Positions 4,620 to 42,236 of a stretch of DNA of 64,000 nt are shown here, piece after piece; the stretch's first letter is position 1, and every line of letters starts with the position of its first letter. Both the position numbers and the translations under genes were made by a program. Under the pieces are notes generated by a model. That model was not told the DNA's origin and searched no databases. It was given only the letters and a program-made list of their open reading frames with translations. The stretch comes from a virus. The DNA lies in IMG/VR virus record IMGVR_UViG_3300042198_000079, positions 80,635-144,634 of that record; one strand, given 5' to 3'.

Positions 4620-5872
4620 TCTGGAAATTGTTCTTTGTTCAAATTATAAATTAATTTTGATTCTTTTCTGGATTTGTCGCCATATGGAGTCAGAAACAAT
4701 TTTAAATAATCGTCCATGTGATCTTGTATAAATAATCCCTCTGCTCTTTGTCTGGATTGTTTAGAAATTTCACTATAATTTCCATTTAATACTTCGTCTA
4801 TTTTAGAAATCATTTCCTCTCCACTTTGAAATTTATATCTAGCATCAGCATACGGAGGACATTCTTGAGCAACACATGGCAACCCCTGAACCCAAGAATC
4901 CAAAAGTTTTTGCCAACTTTTAGAATGTGAAAAATAATTTGCTATTAAAGGAGCAATAGTGCATTGCACATTTAAACTTTTAAGTTTTTCAGGAAAATCC
5001 ATAATGTTTACCCATTCGTGAAATTCAATTTGTCCAGAATCTACATATTTTTTAAGATATACTGGACAACCACCAAATAAAACCCATTGATATTTATCTA
5101 ATGTCTCTATTATGGATTTTCCTACGTGTATAAAATCATCATACAAGTCTTCTTGTTTCTCGACCTTTCCTGTAATTTTAAAATGAGTTGGGCTACCGTT
5201 CCAACAAACTCTTGGTTTCTTTTTATTTTTTTCAAAATTTCTTAAAACATTTTCTTCATTATAATGATTTCCTGCCCATCTTTTTGAAATCAAGTTTGGA
5301 AATGTTGTAATTTTATTATAACCTAATGTATTTCTGTATGTCTCCTTCATAAAAGAAGAACAAACTATAAATTCATCGCATAAGTTTATAATTTCTTTGA
5401 CTCTAGAATCGTGGTTCGGATCTTTGAAATTTTCTTTTGCAGCATTGTAATCCGGTATACCATGGTGATATTTTCCGTCGAGTCCTTTAACACTTAACAA
5501 AAAGAGATCATCGACTTCAAATATTAATTTAAATGCTGTTCCTTTTTCTGCTAAAATTGATTGTTGTAAGTTTTTAAGGTTTTTGAAATATTCCAATTGG
5601 TGTTGTTCGCCCTGCCTTTGTATAATAACAGCATTAGAATTAGTAAAAGTTTCTTTTGAAAAAATCATCATATGGCTTGTGTTTACAATGCCCTTTCCGT
5701 GATAGCTAAGGTGCATTAGTGGTTCCATTAGCCTGATATAAGAACACCCGCTAGAATCCGCCAAAAAGGACGTTATAACGGGAATTTGATTGATGATTGG
5801 GGAACGGGGAGAATTTTGATTTTCTAAATTTACATTAGTATTTTTAAATTCTCTCTTAAACTGTAATGCCAT
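4616..5872 (-). CDS. Glycosyltransferase (GT-B-like)
   Basis: ADSSGCSYIRL, IIQRQ, IFEVDD, WNGSPTH and IAPL...FSHSKS...K motifs typical of phage GT-B proteins. Confidence 0.75.
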   Translation of the reverse strand: MALQFKREFKNTNVNLENQNSPRSPIINQIPVITSFLADSSGCSYIRLMEPLMHLSYHGKGIVNTSHMMIFSKETFTNSNAVIIQRQGEQHQLEYFKNLKNLQQSILAEKGTAFKLIFEVDDLFLLSVKGLDGKYHHGIPDYNAAKENFKDPNHDSRVKEIINLCDEFIVCSSFMKETYRNTLGYNKITTFPNLISKRWAGNHYNEENVLRNFEKNKKKPRVCWNGSPTHFKITGKVEKQEDLYDDFIHVGKSIIETLDKYQWVLFGGCPVYLKKYVDSGQIEFHEWVNIMDFPEKLKSLNVQCTIAPLIANYFSHSKSWQKLLDSWVQGLPCVAQECPPYADARYKFQSGEEMISKIDEVLNGNYSEISKQSRQRAEGLFIQDHMDDYLKLFLTPYGDKSRKESKLIYNLNKEQFPD

Positions 5873-34934: not shown

Positions 34935-35963
34935 ATGAATTCTGATTTTTCTGTTCCAGATTTTAAACTATTTCCAGTTACTAGGGATTTTATAGGAAGC
35001 ACTGTTAAAAATCTTTGGCACCTTGAACAATTGGGATTAAAAAATGTTTGGGAAACAACTAAAGGATCTGGTATAAAAATAGCAATTTTAGATTCTGGAT
35101 TTGCACCACATGAAGAAATTAGTAATGTAAAAGAATCGATATCTTTTGTTTTAGATGAAGACGAAATAGATTATGCCGGACACGGAACTAGTGTAATAGG
35201 GATCTTGGGATCTAAGTGCAAAGAACTTTGCGGCATATGTCCTGAATCAGAAATATATTCTTTAAAGATTTTGAATAGATATATCGAAGGAAATTTTGAT
35301 TCTTTGTATAAAGCACTAGAATGGTGTTTAAAAAATAAACCAGATATAATAAATTTATCAATATCTTCCAAAACGGTTATGCCTCCCAATATAAAACAAA
35401 TATTGGAAGAATTGTACAATCAAAATATAATTATATGTGCATCGACTGGGAACGATAGTTCGGAAATTTCTTATCCTGCAAAATATGAATCCGTATTTTC
35501 AATAGGAGCATATGATCGAGACGGCAACATTGCAGCATTTTCTAACAGAGGAAACGAAATAGACTTTTCTGCTCCCGGTGTTGACATTTATACATGTAGT
35601 AATAAAAATAATGGATATGTACATGCGACCGGAACTAGTTTTGCTAGTCCGATATTTGCAGGAATAGTTTCTTTAATTTTATCAAAACACACTTTTGAAA
35701 GCATTAATCAATTAAAAACATATTTGGTAAAACACGTAAAAGATATGGGAGAAAAAGGATGGGATAAATTTTATGGATGGGGAAGCATTATACCAGAAAC
35801 TGGTATAGAAATTTCAAACGATAAAACTTCTATCCGAGAAGAAAAAATTATATTGGGGACAAAACAAAAATGCTTTATAGATGATTTGCTTTTTCTTTTA
35901 AAGTCATTTAATAATTTAATAGGAAACGATAAAAATAAATTTCCAATATATCACAAAAATTAA
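34935..35963 (+). CDS. Subtilisin-like S8 serine protease
   Basis: Catalytic triad motifs ILDSG, GHGTSV, GTSFASP; oxyanion GN. Confidence 0.92.
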   Translation: MNSDFSVPDFKLFPVTRDFIGSTVKNLWHLEQLGLKNVWETTKGSGIKIAILDSGFAPHEEISNVKESISFVLDEDEIDYAGHGTSVIGILGSKCKELCGICPESEIYSLKILNRYIEGNFDSLYKALEWCLKNKPDIINLSISSKTVMPPNIKQILEELYNQNIIICASTGNDSSEISYPAKYESVFSIGAYDRDGNIAAFSNRGNEIDFSAPGVDIYTCSNKNNGYVHATGTSFASPIFAGIVSLILSKHTFESINQLKTYLVKHVKDMGEKGWDKFYGWGSIIPETGIEISNDKTSIREEKIILGTKQKCFIDDLLFLLKSFNNLIGNDKNKFPIYHKN

Positions 35964-36454
35964 TAATTAGTTTGAAAATTTTTCAAATCTTTTTCGCTCC
36001 AAATTTGGAACTCCCATCCTTTTTTATCACAATGTTCTTTTGCGGTTTTCCATTTTTGAATATTCATTAAAGTTTCATTTATTCTATAATTCCAAGTAGA
36101 GATTTTCTCTCTAGGTGATTTGATTAATGTTTTGTTTTCTGTTAATAATTTAACATTGTTTATTTGTTTTTGTGGTTTTATTTCTGCTAATATTATTTTT
36201 CCATCAGACGTTTCTATAATAAAATCTACAAAATATCTTGCGTTTCTTACTGTTCCGTCTTTCTGAATTTTTTTGTAAGATATCCAATACAGTTCGCTTC
36301 CCCATTTTTTTATTTTAGGAGATCTGTCCAACAGTCTCATATAATCTGCTTCTAATTTAGATCTATAAAAAGGCAAGTTTTCGTTTAAAAGTTTCTGAGG
36401 ATTTGACGGTTTCCAAAATCCTTGCTTGTAACCATCTTTGTTAATTTTGCCCAT
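35960..36454 (-). CDS. gp4: Head completion nuclease gp4 (TnsA-like)
   Basis: YRSKLE, WGSE, RYFVDF, EIKP, NIQKWKTA, WEFQIWSE. Confidence 0.88.
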   Translation of the reverse strand: MGKINKDGYKQGFWKPSNPQKLLNENLPFYRSKLEADYMRLLDRSPKIKKWGSELYWISYKKIQKDGTVRNARYFVDFIIETSDGKIILAEIKPQKQINNVKLLTENKTLIKSPREKISTWNYRINETLMNIQKWKTAKEHCDKKGWEFQIWSEKDLKNFQTNY

Positions 36455-36494: not shown

Positions 36495-36875
36495 ATGATG
36501 ATGAATAATGCATTTAAGTCGCCGGAACTAAACCGTCAAAACCTTAATACTCTTTTTCCTACAAAGGATTATGTTCCTGTTCAAATATTATTTGTAACAG
36601 AAAGAATAAACGAACCGGGGAGAAAATATTACAGACTTCCTAAAAGCAAAGTAGCATATTCGATGGGGTCTTTAAATATAACAATAGGAGATCTTACTAT
36701 TGATGAACTTTATGATTATGTAGATCAAACTATGGAAGATAGTATATATGAAGGAAACATATTAGATATAAAAATAGAAGAACCCCCGAATTATCAAAAT
36801 TATCAAAATACTGAACAACAACAGCAACAACAAAATAACCCCTCAAATATTACTGGTAATATTATTACTATTTGA
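36495..36875 (+). CDS. Hypothetical protein
   Basis: 126-aa ORF with a Q/N-rich tail. Confidence 0.6.
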   Translation: MMMNNAFKSPELNRQNLNTLFPTKDYVPVQILFVTERINEPGRKYYRLPKSKVAYSMGSLNITIGDLTIDELYDYVDQTMEDSIYEGNILDIKIEEPPNYQNYQNTEQQQQQQNNPSNITGNIITI

Positions 36876-37327
36876 ATTTTTGTTATATGGAATGGGAAAA
36901 TGTTCCAGAAAATTTGGACGAATGGTTCGGATTTGTATATTTGATAGAAAGATTGAATGCAAAGGAAAACGAAAAAAAATATTATTGGGGATGTAAAACT
37001 TTAAAGAAAACAGTAAAATTAAATCCATTAAAAGGATATAAAAGAAAAAGAAAAAAAATATCCGATACTGATTGGAAAAATTATTATGGAAGTAGTGAAG
37101 AATTAAAAAAAGATATAGATATACATGGTAAAGAAAATTTTAAAAGAACAATGATAAAAATGTGTAAAAGCAAATGGGAATTAAAATACGAAGAATTAAA
37201 AATTCAAATAGAAAACGATGTTTTATTTAGAGAAGATACATACAACGGAATAATAAATGCAAGATTGGGGAATTGTCCAAAAGTTTTAAAAGAAGAATAT
37301 TTAAAATCTAAAACATTAAATACTTGA
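36872..37327 (+). CDS. GIY-YIG endonuclease (EndoII/DenA-like)
   Basis: GFVYLI...KYYWGCK, DWKNYYGSS, E...YNG.I. Confidence 0.8.
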   Translation: MNFCYMEWENVPENLDEWFGFVYLIERLNAKENEKKYYWGCKTLKKTVKLNPLKGYKRKRKKISDTDWKNYYGSSEELKKDIDIHGKENFKRTMIKMCKSKWELKYEELKIQIENDVLFREDTYNGIINARLGNCPKVLKEEYLKSKTLNT

Positions 37328-37778: not shown

Positions 37779-39191
37779 ATGGTTGTAAAAATTATACATG
37801 TAGATAATAGATTAGCAAAAATAATATGTGATAAATCCTTATTAACGAGAATTCGTAATTTTTTTTCATATAGACAAACTACATGGAAAAATAAAAGAAA
37901 GACTTCTTATATAGAATATCTTTTTAATATTTCTGGAATTTTTAAAAAAGGATTAATACCTTTATTACAAGAATATTTAAATGTTAATAACATTGTTCAT
38001 ACGGTAGAATATTCTTATGAAAGAAAGATAGTTCCCATAGAAGAAGATAAAATATGGTTTCCAAAAAACAAAGAACCGTTTGATTACCAATTAAAAGCAG
38101 TTCTTCGTTCTTTAAAAAGAGAAAGAGGACTTTGGGATTTGGCAACTTCATCTGGTAAATCTCTTACTGCATGTATGTTTATACAATCATTTTTAAATCA
38201 TCATGATGGTTCCAAGGCAATGTTTGTCGTCAATGATACAAACCTTTTATATCAAGCTCAGAAAGACTTTATAGAATATGGAACAGATCCTGATGATATT
38301 ACCTTATGGGGCGATTTTAATGTTCCCGATTTTAATAAAAAAATTTTAATTGTTATAAGCAAATCTCTAATATCAAACTTTGAATTTAGTTATTCTTTTA
38401 CAAAAGACAGAACATTGCTTTTTTGTGATGAAGTTGATTTAGTAGCAAATCCAAAAACACAAATACATAAATTTATAGATAATCATTCGTCTGAATTTAG
38501 ATTTGGATGTACAGGAACTATACCGTCTGATATATATTTAAAACATAAATTGATTAGTAATTTTGGGGACATTATAATAAAAAAATCAGCAGAAGAATTA
38601 AGAACAACTGGAGTTTTAACTAGTTGTGAAGTTTTACCTTTTATGGTTTTTCACGACGAAAAGAGTAAAGAAACATTATCTTGGGAAGAAGAATTTGATT
38701 ATATCTGTAATTCTAATGAAAGAAATAAACTTTTATTAGATATTGCAATTTCATTAAAAACCAATACTCTCTTGTTGGTAGATAGAATATCGCAGATAGA
38801 ATACATAGAGTCAATATCAAAAGACATATCAGATAAAGAAATTTTTTTTATGAGAGGAGATATTCGATCCGAACAAAGAAAAGAAATTTTAGATAAAATG
38901 GAAACAATAAACAACGGTATTGTTGTTTCCATATCTACTTTATTTTCAAGAGGCGTTAGTGTTAAAAATATACATAATGTTATTTGTTCTTCTTTAGGCA
39001 AATCAGAATCGAGAATAATACAAACAATAGGAAGAGGTTTAAGAAAACACAAAACAAAAAATAAAGCACTTATTATAGATGTTTTTGATAATCTTAAATA
39101 TTCGAAAAAACACTGGAATAGCAGAAAAGAAGTTTATGCATCAGAAAATATACCAATATTATATCAAAAAACTTTTGATATAAATATTTAA
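37779..39191 (+). CDS. uvsW: SF2 helicase UvsW
   Basis: DYQ, ATSSGKS, CDEVD, GCTGT, QTIGRGLR. Confidence 0.93.
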   Translation: MVVKIIHVDNRLAKIICDKSLLTRIRNFFSYRQTTWKNKRKTSYIEYLFNISGIFKKGLIPLLQEYLNVNNIVHTVEYSYERKIVPIEEDKIWFPKNKEPFDYQLKAVLRSLKRERGLWDLATSSGKSLTACMFIQSFLNHHDGSKAMFVVNDTNLLYQAQKDFIEYGTDPDDITLWGDFNVPDFNKKILIVISKSLISNFEFSYSFTKDRTLLFCDEVDLVANPKTQIHKFIDNHSSEFRFGCTGTIPSDIYLKHKLISNFGDIIIKKSAEELRTTGVLTSCEVLPFMVFHDEKSKETLSWEEEFDYICNSNERNKLLLDIAISLKTNTLLLVDRISQIEYIESISKDISDKEIFFMRGDIRSEQRKEILDKMETINNGIVVSISTLFSRGVSVKNIHNVICSSLGKSESRIIQTIGRGLRKHKTKNKALIIDVFDNLKYSKKHWNSRKEVYASENIPILYQKTFDINI

Positions 39192-39986
39192 ATGAAGTCT
39201 TTTAGACAATATTTAAATAGTTTTTTAACAGAAAATTCCAAAAAAGAAGCGTTCGATCCGGCGCAGCAGGACGCGGATTACATGGCCGCAGTCAATGCCG
39301 CGACTCAAGCAAGGAATGAAATCATTGACCGGTTTAATGCGGAAAATGTTTTCATTTTCCGCGACCTAGTGCAGAGCTTTGGTCAGCCGCCAACCGCAGG
39401 AGACATTCAGAACGACGACACCGACGATGAGCAGACTCAATTTGCGTCTTGGAAGTATCGCTACGGCGAGGCGGCGGGGTATTTCGTCACCAGAAATCGA
39501 ACTCGAAAAGAAAACGGACAATGGGGCCAATGGTCTAAATGGGAAGCCTTTTCTCCAAAGTTCGACCGACCGACGGACACGTTTGAAACCGCTGACGAAG
39601 CGATTGCTTGGTTGCGAACAGCGCCAATCATGGATGCAGGCAACCAAGTTGCGCTTGCCAAAACGTATGAATCAGATCGCAATCGGGCGCTGGCAACATT
39701 TGAACTTCTGAATAAACTTGCAGTGCCTTCAGGCTGGACGTTGGTAAACGCACAAGACAGTCAATTCGGATCAAAGTATTGGAACCTAGTTGCTTCGGAC
39801 GGCACAAAATACAAACTTTCGGTTCGGTCGCATGAACCTTCGCCCAAATGGCAGGCAGAACTTGGCGCAATTGATTATTACGTGCCGCTTCGATGGGATA
39901 AAGGCGACGCGATAAAGACCGTTCCGCTAGAAGACATTTCAGAAGCAATGTCTAAATTGGAAGATTGGTTGCGATCAAAAGCTTAA
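39192..39986 (+). CDS. CTS leader fused to a GC-rich foreign polyvalent-protein-like fragment
   Basis: TATAAATA 39179-39186; AT-rich MKSFRQYLNSFLTE followed by GC-rich DPAQQDADYMAAV... Confidence 0.75.
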   Translation: MKSFRQYLNSFLTENSKKEAFDPAQQDADYMAAVNAATQARNEIIDRFNAENVFIFRDLVQSFGQPPTAGDIQNDDTDDEQTQFASWKYRYGEAAGYFVTRNRTRKENGQWGQWSKWEAFSPKFDRPTDTFETADEAIAWLRTAPIMDAGNQVALAKTYESDRNRALATFELLNKLAVPSGWTLVNAQDSQFGSKYWNLVASDGTKYKLSVRSHEPSPKWQAELGAIDYYVPLRWDKGDAIKTVPLEDISEAMSKLEDWLRSKA

Positions 39987-40750
39987 GGCAATCTTTCCGC
40001 CCTAGCGACGCCGCAGCAAGACGCTGCCTACCTCGCAGCCGTCGAGGCGGGCGATATGAAGACGGCGCAGCGAATGGTGAATGATGCGGCTGAAAATAAA
40101 CAAACAGTTTTCCGAGGGCAAAAAGGCTTTCAGAGTAAATACCCGAAAAGCACTAAAGGATTCTTTGGGGTTGGACAGAAGATTGTTCCAACTTTTTGGA
40201 CAACTTCCGAATCATTAGCAAAAGATTATTCTCGCGATGGAGAATACAAAGGATCGACAACACCATCAGCAGAAGCGCAGAAAGGAATCGCTGCATGGGA
40301 ATACGAGAATGTCTGGACAAGGAGTGACGGTTCACAATACACAACCACGGACACTACAACTGATAAGGGCATAGCGGAAAAGGCAAAAGAACAAGGAAGA
40401 AGAGTTAAAGAAACAAGGGTCTTCCCTCAAACCGCAACTGTGCAATCTGCAAAGTTGTTTTTCAAAAAACCTCTTGTGCTTGATGCAAACGGAGCAATTT
40501 GGCGAGAAGTGAATTTCAAAGGTAGGAAGATGTCTACCGATCAGATCGTTGAATACGCTTTCAAAAACGGATATGATGGAGTGGAAATTAAGAATGTCAG
40601 AGATTCTTTTGCGGGGTTAAGGTTTGAAGATACCTCTAATGTATTGGTCTCATTTTATCCCGAACAAGTAAAATCCGCAGACCCAGTAACCTACGACGAA
40701 TCCGGCAACATAATCCCACTTTCCAAACGATTTAATCCTGATAGCGAATC
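39250..40750. other. GC-rich horizontally acquired island
   Basis: G+C counts of 35/60, 39/60 and 26/60 in lines 39241, 40021 and 40501, versus 13/60 in line 39061. Confidence 0.85.
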
Positions 40751-40790
40751 AATCAATGAATCAAATGTCATATTTTCATATTGGAGTTAA
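40056..40790 (+). CDS. ADP-ribosyltransferase of polyvalent-protein type (in frame with the upstream ORF, past a single TAA)
   Basis: DAAYLAAVEAGDMKTAQRMV, VFRG, FWTTS..LAKDY, GYDGV, QVKSADPVTYD..GNIIPLSKRFN. Confidence 0.7.
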   Translation: MKTAQRMVNDAAENKQTVFRGQKGFQSKYPKSTKGFFGVGQKIVPTFWTTSESLAKDYSRDGEYKGSTTPSAEAQKGIAAWEYENVWTRSDGSQYTTTDTTTDKGIAEKAKEQGRRVKETRVFPQTATVQSAKLFFKKPLVLDANGAIWREVNFKGRKMSTDQIVEYAFKNGYDGVEIKNVRDSFAGLRFEDTSNVLVSFYPEQVKSADPVTYDESGNIIPLSKRFNPDSESINESNVIFSYWS

Positions 40791-42236
40791 TTCTTGGGTA
40801 TTCTCGTCATAAAAAGATACAATTCTTAATATTTTTCTTTTTTCTCTTTCTGCGATTTTTTGCATTTTTTCTATTTCTGTTTCGTAATATTTTTCAGGAT
40901 CTTTTTTATATTTTGAAATTACTTCATCTGAAAATATTTTATTTAATTCTTCACTAATATCATCTTCTGCTGTGGGGTTAAGCACATGTTTAGATCCTAT
41001 ACTAAATAATTCGCTTGGGGGGAGGATTTCATAAAACGTGTCTTCTAAGCGTTGTTTAAAAATATTAAGAATTTTGTCTAAAAATGATTTTATCACTAGA
41101 ATATCAGTTTCATTTTTCAATTTATTTATCAAATCTTTTCTAAATTTTACACACTCCTCAAAAAGTGGTATTAAATCTGTAAGGTTACTTCTTCTTAAGA
41201 AATGGATAACCACATCGGGTTTTTCATTTTCCAATACATTTAATATAGTATGAGCGATTTTGGTATTATTGTGAAATTTTTGTAATACAAAATCAGTAAT
41301 CTCAGTAATTTCTAAAAATTTAATAATTTTGTCTTTTTCTTCTTTTTCTTTCAACCCATTTATAAAATTATTATATGAAAACTTATGTATTTCGTCTAAT
41401 TTTTTATATAATTCGTTATTTTTTATTGCATTTATCAAATCGTTTTTTGTTTCAAATTTTCTTCTTTTATTACCATGTGAAAAAAGACTAGAATATATCT
41501 GTGTAGGATAATTAGGTATTTCTATTTTATCTATAAAATATTTATTATGATAAAATTTATAAATATTTTTGATATTATAAACTGGAAGTATTGCCTTCCT
41601 GAAATCCGAATTTGTAAAATATTCTACCATCTCCCCAAATCCCGTTCCTGTTTTATTTCGTTTTCTCCTTGTAAATATATGACCAAGTTCATGAGACACA
41701 GCACTGACACATTCAGAATTTAATTCGTCTAATCCCTCTATAATTTTATTTTTTGTATTAGGAATTGTTAGCGGATCGATATCTAGAATTGCGCCTTTAT
41801 TTAACAAATATTTTATTGTTATTTGTATTGTATCTTGATCTTCATAAATAATATATTTGCCTTTTTTGTGTTTTGCAATTGGAACTTGTGTAGATGCACC
41901 TCTCATGACAATTTTTTTATCTTTATGTAAATTTCCCAACGAATCAAAATTTTCTATAAAATCAATTGTTATTCGGTATGTTAATTTATTAAATATTTTA
42001 TCTCCTATTACAAATTCATCGCCAGCATTACATACATATTGACCATCTATTATAGATGAAGTCCGGTCATTATTATAGAACTTATTAAAATCCATGATTA
42101 CTGATCTATTATTTCGGTTTAAATCCTCTATAATTTTATCATATATTATTGTGTATATTCTTTCTGATACTTCGTGTATTTTTGGAAAAATCCCTCTGGC
42201 TTCTGATAAAAGCAAATATTCTTTAAATGTTTTCAT
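40776..42236 (-). CDS. CTS-leader protein with zincin HExxH motif
   Basis: MKTFKEYLLLSEARG; VSHELGH with a downstream E (KIEIP); TATAAATA 42244-42251. Confidence 0.7.
   Translation of the reverse strand: MKTFKEYLLLSEARGIFPKIHEVSERIYTIIYDKIIEDLNRNNRSVIMDFNKFYNNDRTSSIIDGQYVCNAGDEFVIGDKIFNKLTYRITIDFIENFDSLGNLHKDKKIVMRGASTQVPIAKHKKGKYIIYEDQDTIQITIKYLLNKGAILDIDPLTIPNTKNKIIEGLDELNSECVSAVSHELGHIFTRRKRNKTGTGFGEMVEYFTNSDFRKAILPVYNIKNIYKFYHNKYFIDKIEIPNYPTQIYSSLFSHGNKRRKFETKNDLINAIKNNELYKKLDEIHKFSYNNFINGLKEKEEKDKIIKFLEITEITDFVLQKFHNNTKIAHTILNVLENEKPDVVIHFLRRSNLTDLIPLFEECVKFRKDLINKLKNETDILVIKSFLDKILNIFKQRLEDTFYEILPPSELFSIGSKHVLNPTAEDDISEELNKIFSDEVISKYKKDPEKYYETEIEKMQKIAEREKRKILRIVSFYDENTQELTPI

Follow-up and report, generated by a model that had tools for sequence, protein, structure and literature searches.

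Organization of the locus

The DNA analysed here, referred to as the window, is a stretch of 64,000 nucleotides corresponding to bases 80635-144634 of a 144.6-kb IMG/VR virus contig (IMGVR_UViG_3300042198_000079), and positions are given in window numbering. Between 39 and 41 kb of the window, a gene with a T4-type late promoter and a short native leader runs in frame into a G+C-rich island, which probably represents a captured piece of the giant polyvalent proteins of phages and plasmids. An in-frame TAA divides the coding sequence into two open reading frames (ORFs), the leader-bearing ORF1 and the leaderless ORF2, and the latter is predicted to fold as an ADP-ribosyltransferase (ART). An earlier note on this DNA, made from the sequence alone, had described the locus as a recently captured polyvalent-protein ART fragment grafted onto a capsid-targeting leader. 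The features of the locus are as follows.

39179-39186, plus strand: match to the T4-type late-promoter consensus TATAAATA, 5 nucleotides before the ATG at 39192
39192-39986, plus strand: ORF1, 264 amino acids, leader and a predicted alpha+beta polyvalent-protein domain without assigned function
39192-39233, plus strand: native leader MKSFRQYLNSFLTE, resembling a capsid-targeting sequence (CTS) and ending in L-x-E; 19% G+C including the next five codons
39234-39248, plus strand: NSKKE, AT-rich native spacer, followed by the left junction at 39248/39249
39249-40763, plus strand: G+C-rich foreign island, a single continuous in-frame polyvalent-protein fragment by composition, codon usage and alignments
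39258-39293, plus strand: first linker-like motif PAQQDADYMAAV
39984-39986, plus strand: in-frame TAA ending the leader-tagged protein, present in all three assemblies that cover it
40008-40094, plus strand: canonical polyvalent linker TPQQDAAYLAAVEAGDMKTAQRMVNDAAE, kept in all aligned homologues
40056-40790, plus strand: ORF2, 244 amino acids, leaderless ART module from the ATG at 40056 (gene callers chose the ATG at 40074, giving 238 amino acids)
40095-40682, plus strand: predicted ART-fold core (model residues 37-232)
40665-40763, plus strand: module tail QVKSADPVTYDESGNIIPLSKRFN (40665-40736) followed by DSESINES, a variant of the usual ...DDIRYS end
40776-42236, minus strand: convergent native leader-bearing gene (MKTFKEYLLLSE, 486 amino acids), overlapping the end of ORF2 by 15 nucleotides and bounding the island on the right

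The ATG at 39192 opens MKSFRQYLNSFLTENSKKE. ORF1 and ORF2 are in the same frame. Reading through the TAA gives 532 open codons with the stop at position 265, and the 267 codons after it are all open, with ATGs at 40056 and 40074. The motifs quoted in the earlier note were all found where it had placed them, PAQQDADYMAAV at 39258-39293, TPQQDAAYLAAV from 40008 and QVKSADPVTYDESGNIIPLSKRFN at 40665-40736.

Composition and boundaries of the island

The source contig has 29.5% G+C and an estimated completeness of 67%. At the left edge of the island the G+C content in 50-nucleotide windows was 0.16 and 0.18 and then 0.64 at 39250, placing the step at 39249. The abrupt switch from AT-rich to G+C-rich DNA described before at about 39250 was therefore borne out, although the range of 43-65% G+C reported with it was slightly high, since the island had 0.38-0.52 in 200-nucleotide windows against 0.19-0.33 in the flanks. 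The right edge fades, with values of 0.44, 0.40, 0.28 and 0.20 across 40650-40800, and the rich stretch extends to about 40760. The G+C content at third codon positions (GC3) was 0.49 for the body of ORF1 and 0.40 for ORF2, compared with a genome mean of 0.20 (standard deviation 0.056). Their codon-usage fit was the poorest among all real genes (z = -5.0 for the ORF1 body and -3.5 for ORF2). The sliding G+C and codon analysis proposed in the earlier note thus revealed a foreign composition, and the observation of a G+C-rich island behind the promoter and leader is confirmed.

No transposase gene adjoins the island and no terminal repeats flank it other than short AT-rich chance matches, in agreement with the earlier description. 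The ends of the island match module boundaries: it starts at the linker-like PAQQDADYMAAV, holds the full linker TPQQDAAYLAAVEAGDMKTAQRMVNDAAE and closes on the family tail QVKSADPVTYDESGNIIPLSKRFN.

The predicted proteins recur letter for letter on further contigs. Two of these, L004 and L005 (JGI samples 3300047481 and 3300047482), showed zero mismatches over 39197-41308 and 39184-40839, respectively. Together they extend from the promoter across the junction between leader and island, the internal stop and the right edge to 530 bases into the native neighbour, and L004 passes without mismatch from the island into the convergent 486-amino-acid gene. Since two junctions, one of them in frame, would have to be reproduced in three assemblies, the island is not an assembly artefact.

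Elsewhere on the contig, high G+C was seen in low-complexity sequence coding for glycine-rich stretches, in the capsid gene and over the first 700 bases. The remaining G+C-rich regions were considered as further captures and rejected, since they are glycine-rich coding sequence of low complexity. Outside the window, a 694-amino-acid late protein (G000:C1:13817-15898, L010) contains HTHDISSITNLQT repeats and a very glycine-rich C-terminal third. Its gene reaches at most 67% G+C in 300-nucleotide windows, and this richness of the fibre-like protein comes from amino-acid content and not from transfer. The first 700 bases of the contig (G000:C1:1-700, L011), also outside the window, have 43-57% G+C without a convincing gene; a further foreign piece or an error at the contig end could account for them.

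Polyvalent-protein origin of the two modules

A phmmer search against 1.84 billion representative proteins gave 2855 matches, and most of the 150 listed were 2000-6000 amino acids long. The single relative of the ORF1 domain among the matches listed was P0009, a protein of 6293 amino acids, with 40% identity over 239 residues (P0009 positions 4935-5164). P0009 also bears motifs of an ART (AYHGT type), a methylase (NPPF) and a helicase (DESH). The second half of the read-through sequence was 56% identical over 278 residues to P0004 (1958 amino acids; query residues 249-526 by BLASTP and 249-519 by phmmer), which is encoded on a phage contig beside tail-fibre genes, and 46% identical to a fragment from a Lactococcus lactis metagenome-assembled genome. 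P0009 aligned to query residues 30-292 and P0004 from query residue 249. Because both alignments bridge the stop at 265, the island is a single continuous in-frame piece of two polyvalent modules.

Most of the relatives are on contigs of 45-65% G+C, which is consistent with the island. The earlier note had regarded donors already carrying the same leader as a finding that would speak against a capture; the nearest homologues have no T4-type leader beside the shared domains. The polyvalent-protein origin that it had proposed for the region was supported, both halves being homologous to domains of giant phage polyvalent proteins. With blastn, the island matched none of 50,697 phage records, and tblastn searches of ORF1, ORF2 and the read-through sequence against phages and plasmids were likewise negative.

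ORF1 itself had no match in Pfam, in PHROG or, by sequence search, in the PDB, and PHROGs likewise returned nothing for ORF2 and seven other leader-bearing proteins. No relatives of ORF1 were found among proteins of 145-462 or 463-2000 amino acids, or in scans of viral, metagenome and genome contigs, even with an alignment of ORF1 and P0009 as the query. The AlphaFold2 (AF2) model of ORF1 from its single sequence had a pLDDT of 49.6 and was unusable. A MAFFT alignment of ORF1 with the whole of P0009 scattered the N-terminal third and was not used for folding, and the ESM Atlas entries found by features and shape were weak (e.g., PsiB, TM 0.31/0.47) and were not relied on.

The internal stop

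TAA terminates 74 of the 109 long ORFs and is thus the main stop codon of this phage, and no tRNA genes were found on the contig. Recoding of the TAA at 39984-39986 was rejected on these grounds, the contig having no gene for a suppressor tRNA. Polyvalent proteins have at least two disparate effector domains in one polypeptide, whereas here the TAA leaves ORFs of 264 and 244 amino acids. Because of the stop, the island is a fragment derived from a polyvalent protein and not a polyvalent protein as it stands. The earlier note had an effector grafted in frame onto the leader, and this holds for the domain of ORF1 but not for the ART, which the TAA cuts off. The packaged part is predicted to be the ORF1 domain only, and the ART to be a separate leaderless frame.

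The ART module

ORF2 matched the Pfam family ART-PolyVal (PF18760) with 24.9 bits and E = 3.9e-5 over profile positions 32-134 of 140, which is below the gathering cut-off of 31.2 bits; a six-frame search of the genome with the same profile gave 23.8 bits. The profile search suggested in the earlier note thus found the family, but under its cut-off. The closest relative, P0004, is likewise below the cut-off with 22.9 bits. The linker D..YL.AVE.GDM.TAQ.MV..AA and the tail IKSADPVTYD..GN.IPLS.RF of the family are both present and nearly invariant in the alignments.

The AF2 model of ORF2, built with 21 homologues, had a pLDDT of 77.3 and a pTM of 0.66. An exhaustive VIA-align search with this model returned almost only ARTs at the top, with Z from 6.7 to 5 (ParT 6.7, NatT 6.5 and MbcT 6.2, and also AcrIF11, tankyrases, PARPs, diphtheria toxin and exotoxin A); values of Z below 8 are moderate, and it is the consistency of the list that makes the case. 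In the ESM Atlas, the nearest cluster was 95% PF18760, with TM 0.59/0.64 over 191 residues, and ART-PolyVal-like viral proteins were found in BFVD at E values of 1e-12 to 1e-13. Foldseek gave no match in the PDB at E <= 0.001, the tankyrase and PARP entries being weak, and a profile search of PDB sequences gave chance matches only. On the model, the predicted ART fold of ORF2 and its affinity to ART-PolyVal hold. An insertion of about 75 residues (40194-40470) separates strand 2 from the later strands of the core in ORF2 as well as in its two closest relatives, and was modelled as a small beta-rich subdomain with weak PII-like matches.

The active site of ART-PolyVal consists of a His in strand 1, a Tyr in strand 2 and an Asp in strand 5 (Iyer et al. 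2017, PMC5512222). The corresponding positions of ORF2, set from sequence alignment and model strands and not from residue-level superposition, are R (FRGQ, 40110), F/W (FWTTS, 40194) and D (YDGVEI, 40572). In the alignment columns most homologues have YHGT where ORF2 has FRGQ, and (Y/F)(Y/F)(T/S) where it has FWTTS; the R variant is common to the two closest relatives, P0004 and P0005. The Arg in strand 1 and the Thr/Ser-rich turn past strand 2 are reminiscent of the R-S-E class. Because of the score and the active site, ORF2 would not be a strict member of ART-PolyVal, and we classify it as ART-PolyVal-like, divergent. The ART-PolyVal effector described in the earlier note is therefore retained as to its type of fold, but with two of the three active-site residues changed.

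The leader family and its phage

The leader is one of a family in the same genome, which includes MLTKFNNYLNSMLNE, MFEKFNKYFYSMLNE, MLEKFNNYINEFLLE, MKTFKEYLLLSE, MLTFKKYLLNE and MRSFKNYILCE, all of which finish as hydrophobic residue-x-Glu. A simple leader pattern matched the N-termini of 9 ORFs, compared with 0.55 expected from its internal rate. The leaders of this family are placed behind TAAATA. One paralogous leader continues as ...LNESKKK. Because this resembles the ...LTENSKKE of the island gene, the native part reaches up to the G+C step. Cargo tagged with a CTS is recognised by a short N-terminal L/I-x-E leader on unrelated late proteins, as seen for MKSFRQYLNSFLTE, and by a gp21-type protease and a T4-type capsid protein in the same genome. 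Both are encoded on the contig, the T4-type major capsid protein (Gp23, 254.7 bits) and the gp21-type prohead protease (Peptidase_S77, 54.3 bits) each scoring above the cut-off. MKSFRQYLNSFLTE resembles the MKTYQEFIAE of T4. The best available reading of the leader, by analogy with T4, is a capsid address that would be cut after Glu14 by the gp21-like protease. In T4, a conserved CTS is reported to bring a variety of internal proteins, and also foreign ones that were engineered, into the core of the prohead (PMC3012670), and T4 Alt is a packaged and injected ART (PMC5512222).

The best match of the UvsW-like helicase encoded at 37779-39191 among cultured phages was 30% identical, in Campylobacter phages. 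The helicase, the 486-amino-acid neighbour and the capsid protein, each searched against IMG/VR, gave no phage relative. Since the helicase is at most 30% identical to cultured phages and none of the three proteins found a close relative in IMG/VR, the source can be classed by its proteins as a deeply divergent T4-like phage. Shine-Dalgarno-like sites were found before 7 of the 128 long ORFs, below the background rate. TAAATA lies within 20 nucleotides of the start in 52 of these ORFs (41%), compared with 1.4% of random positions, and often 5-8 nucleotides before the ATG. The scarcity of Shine-Dalgarno sites and the closeness of TAAATA to the starts suggest leaderless late mRNAs and a host not reliant on Shine-Dalgarno pairing.

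Outside the window, the contig carries a second ART-like gene on the minus strand (G000:C1:31923-32789, L007:859-1725). Its leader, METFKQWLNE, runs directly into RAYHGS...GWGFYFAENKSVAASY, in which the H/Y motifs are those canonical for polyvalent ARTs. The gene has native composition (G+C 0.31, GC3 0.18), and its matches in Pfam are weak ones alone (DUF3990, 22 bits; ART-PolyVal, 19 bits). This gene may stem from an earlier leader-linked capture whose composition has since ameliorated.

Three further genes upstream of the island may be recorded here. A subtilase gene (Peptidase_S8, 140.7 bits) at 34935-35963 on the plus strand lies amid the leader-bearing genes. The nearest mobile-type genes, situated 1.9-3.2 kb upstream of the island and not adjacent to it, are the following two.

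35960-36454, minus strand: protein with a TnsA-like endonuclease N-terminal domain (53.8 bits), upstream of the SegE-type gene
36872-37327, plus strand: SegE-type GIY-YIG homing endonuclease (87.6 bits), 1.9 kb upstream of the island

Endonucleases of the GIY-YIG and TnsA-like types can stimulate gene conversion nearby.

Parallel fusions and module exchange in other T4-like phages

A related arrangement was observed on L036, a 75-kb T4-like contig with 29.5% G+C that carries Portal_T4 and gp13 genes, its portal protein being 30% identical to that of the phage studied here. Behind TAAATA, L036 carries a leader-gene cluster of its own (MTKNFDLFVEKL..., MTEKFDTFVESLLLE, MTRNFDQFCNYILE and others). 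In its protein P0159, a copy of the leader, ...ITENFDQFCSRFLYE (leader motif ...NFDQFCSRFLYE), is followed three residues on by the polyvalent linker and then by a bona fide ART-PolyVal domain (60.4 bits). The G+C content of the gene rises from 0.30 to 0.45-0.53 inside the linker, and GC3 is 0.49 in the module compared with 0.21 in the native half. P0159 repeats the construction of the present locus as a separate event, with an ART from another subfamily.

Exchange of modules was seen directly in two pairs of phages. The identity between L036 and contig L042, its close relative, is 93% as far as the linker and 82-99% from the tail on; between linker and tail, L042 holds a different module, and there is no DNA similarity. 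Contigs L038 and L039, which are T4-like with about 44% G+C, are 97% identical up to residue 32 of a linker-initial gene and 92% from the tail motif on, with unrelated bodies of 400-480 bp between linker and tail. The products of this gene, P0153 and P0155 (L038:10001-10705 and L039:10001-10624), accordingly agree completely in a 32-residue linker start and in the tail end, with unrelated domains in the middle. The breakpoints of both replacements are in the linker and tail. The parallel linker-module-tail genes (P0153 and P0155, on L038-L040) and leader-linker-ART genes sit among T4-type head and neck genes.

Two side observations were made on these contigs. Apart from the exchanged ART module body, L036:9991-13000 and L042:1-3000, whose flanks are 93-99% identical, differ by an additional leader-bearing gene (L036:11206-11670); on either side of it stands a copy of a promoter/leader stretch of about 100 bp, the copies being 93% identical. 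The gene of P0153 and P0155 comes after a protein of 1056-1094 amino acids that contains an intein.

The earlier note had taken the locus as evidence that the leader is a working capture platform. This is only partly supported: the island is joined in frame to a native, enriched leader, but the breakpoints in the sister phages are in the linker and tail, outside the leader. The leader is better described as the place where a first fusion landed than as a demonstrated recombination device.

Origin of the fusion and alternative explanations

We propose, as the probable explanation of the locus, that a foreign two-module polyvalent piece was captured behind the native leader and was later split by the TAA. 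A divergent AT-rich T4-like phage would have taken up about 1.5 kb of foreign, G+C-richer DNA comprising two consecutive phage or plasmid polyvalent modules, namely the domain without assigned function, the linker, and an ART-PolyVal-type ART with its tail. The piece would have replaced the cargo of one of the many genes built of a late promoter, a short leader and a variable body, with the in-frame join five codons past the L-x-E of the leader. By analogy with the T4 CTS, the leader would direct the product to the prohead core and there be cut off after Glu14 by the gp21-like protease, and the cargo would be injected with the DNA. The TAA most likely arose as a nonsense mutation after the capture (CAA, AAA or GAA to TAA), fitting A+T mutation pressure, and the ART would then be decaying or be made at a low level in the cytoplasm. 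Such turnover of modules is probably ongoing in these phages, by recombination in the conserved linker and tail. A wider idea, which we put forward tentatively and consider possible but doubtful, is that the promoter and leader form an integron-like cassette for injected proteins in widespread AT-rich T4-like phages, recruiting modules from the polyvalent pool whose bodies are exchanged through linker and tail. The window would then hold a fresh recruitment of two modules and their first sorting into packaged and unpackaged parts.

Several observations count against the proposed capture or limit what it explains. In the collections searched for donors, a check suggested in the earlier note, none was closer than 56% identity for the ART or 40% for the first domain. 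The word "recent" used there has one argument, the composition, which shows no amelioration. For the two nearest relatives of the ART, the surrounding DNA has 31-37% G+C, less than the island. The R and F/W of ORF2 replace the H and Y that define the ART-PolyVal active site, only the D of YDG before strand 5 being kept, and this predicted R/F/D variant may have another activity or none. No phage relative that would show the locus in its ancestral state was found with the three proteins searched against IMG/VR. The two additional samples are numbered consecutively and maybe come from one study, so their independence is that of separate assemblies.

Among the alternatives, a functional stop is unlikely though worth considering. 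The phage would then keep a tagged, injected domain of no assigned function and a leaderless ART translated from the ATG 40056 or 40074; late in infection this ART would work in the cytoplasm, much as T4 ModA and ModB do within the cell. The frame of 267 codons past the TAA is wholly open despite A+T pressure, an ATG with GAGG 8 nucleotides upstream lies inside the conserved linker, free-standing linker-initial genes exist in other T4-like phages (P0153, P0155), and the TAA is fixed in three assemblies. An open frame requires no selection, however, if the capture is recent, and the GAGG weighs little in a phage with so few Shine-Dalgarno-like sites. Furthermore, no promoter consensus precedes ORF2 and a start at 40056 halves the linker. 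We regard it as rather improbable that homologous recombination in flanking or leader sequence brought in the whole cassette (promoter, leader and both modules) from a different AT-rich T4-like phage, the fusion having arisen elsewhere. Although leader-linker-ART genes do occur in distant T4-like phages of equal G+C, and T4-type phages shuffle genes through conserved regulatory cassettes (PMC2839356), the leader is close to its paralogues in the same genome, including the residues past the cleavage site, and no other contig with the cassette was found except the identical copies. Such a transfer would in any case alter the place of origin of the fusion and not its nature.

The remaining two explanations deny a capture altogether. 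It is very improbable that the gene is old and native, its G+C content coming from amino-acid content or codon selection. The capsid gene is also enriched (43% G+C overall, GC3 0.34), and the second, weakly ART-like leader gene has native composition. But no other real gene reaches the GC3 of 0.49, the codon fit of z -5.0 compares with about -2.2 for the capsid gene, the left edge is a step within 50 nucleotides exactly at the boundary of leader and cargo, and the same pattern was found at the leader/linker boundary of an unrelated phage. A chimera with reads of a G+C-richer organism is hardly credible, in spite of the metagenome assembly source and of additional contigs that start at 39184 and 39197 and in one case end at 40839, near the edges of the island, where they could be branches of an assembly graph. 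Both junctions are base-identical in three separately assembled samples, the left one preserves the frame of the leader, the right end enters the neighbouring gene with an overlap of 15 nucleotides, and the same architecture is present in other phages.

Comparison with known systems

The mosaicism of polyvalent proteins is already known (PMC5512222), and gene replacement at conserved cassettes of T4-type phages is known for the early PeSL elements (PMC2839356). We did not find a description of the joining of a CTS leader with a polyvalent module, with a compositional seam and exchange between sister phages. The locus offers a testable picture of how phages renew injected proteins against host defences, and the natural boundaries of leader, linker and tail are candidate signals for packaging and swapping. 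The in-frame stop and the R/F/D active site caution that a captured module is not necessarily used as captured.

In T4, the IPI-III proteins and Alt, whose CTS is cut by the gp21 prohead protease, likewise have a short (L/I)-x-E leader of a kind carried by many unrelated late proteins, together with a gp21-type protease and a gp23-type capsid protein. The leader described here differs from the T4 CTS in sequence and has 14 residues. Unlike T4 Alt, the cargo comes from the polyvalent pool, its ART belongs by sequence and model to the H-Y-D lineage and not to the R-S-E Alt/VIP2 clade, and it is severed from the leader by a stop.

As in polyvalent proteins (PF18760, Tox-ART-HYD2 clade; PMC5512222), the linker and tail motifs of that family are present, the best or only relatives of both domains lie inside proteins of 2000-6300 amino acids, and the fold and the nearest predicted structures are those of ART-PolyVal. 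The giant polyvalent proteins differ from the fragment found here, which comprises two modules in about 510 codons, follows a T4-type leader and is interrupted by a stop. The active site is R/F(W)/D in place of the H/Y/D of ART-PolyVal, as it is in the two closest relatives.

The PeSL cassettes of T4-type phages consist of early promoters and stem-loops and are non-coding (Arbiol et al. 2010, PMC2839356). The present locus resembles them in that short conserved elements before variable non-essential genes are sites of gene replacement (PMC2839356). It differs in that the conserved element is a late promoter with a coding leader, and the breakpoints of the swaps are in the coding linker and tail.

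The closest parallels are P0159 (L036) and P0167 (L042), which have the same order of CTS-like leader, linker, module and tail and a G+C-rich module in an AT-rich genome. Their leaders belong to the family NFDQFC..FL.E, their ART is of the canonical H type, and they have a single module without an internal stop; in P0159, unlike here, the leader copy is fused behind another native domain. The T4 capsid-targeting leader and the giant polyvalent proteins, two systems for delivering proteins that accompany phage DNA, have so far been treated separately. They are joined at this locus, where the composition still shows the seam between the polyvalent piece and the T4-type leader.

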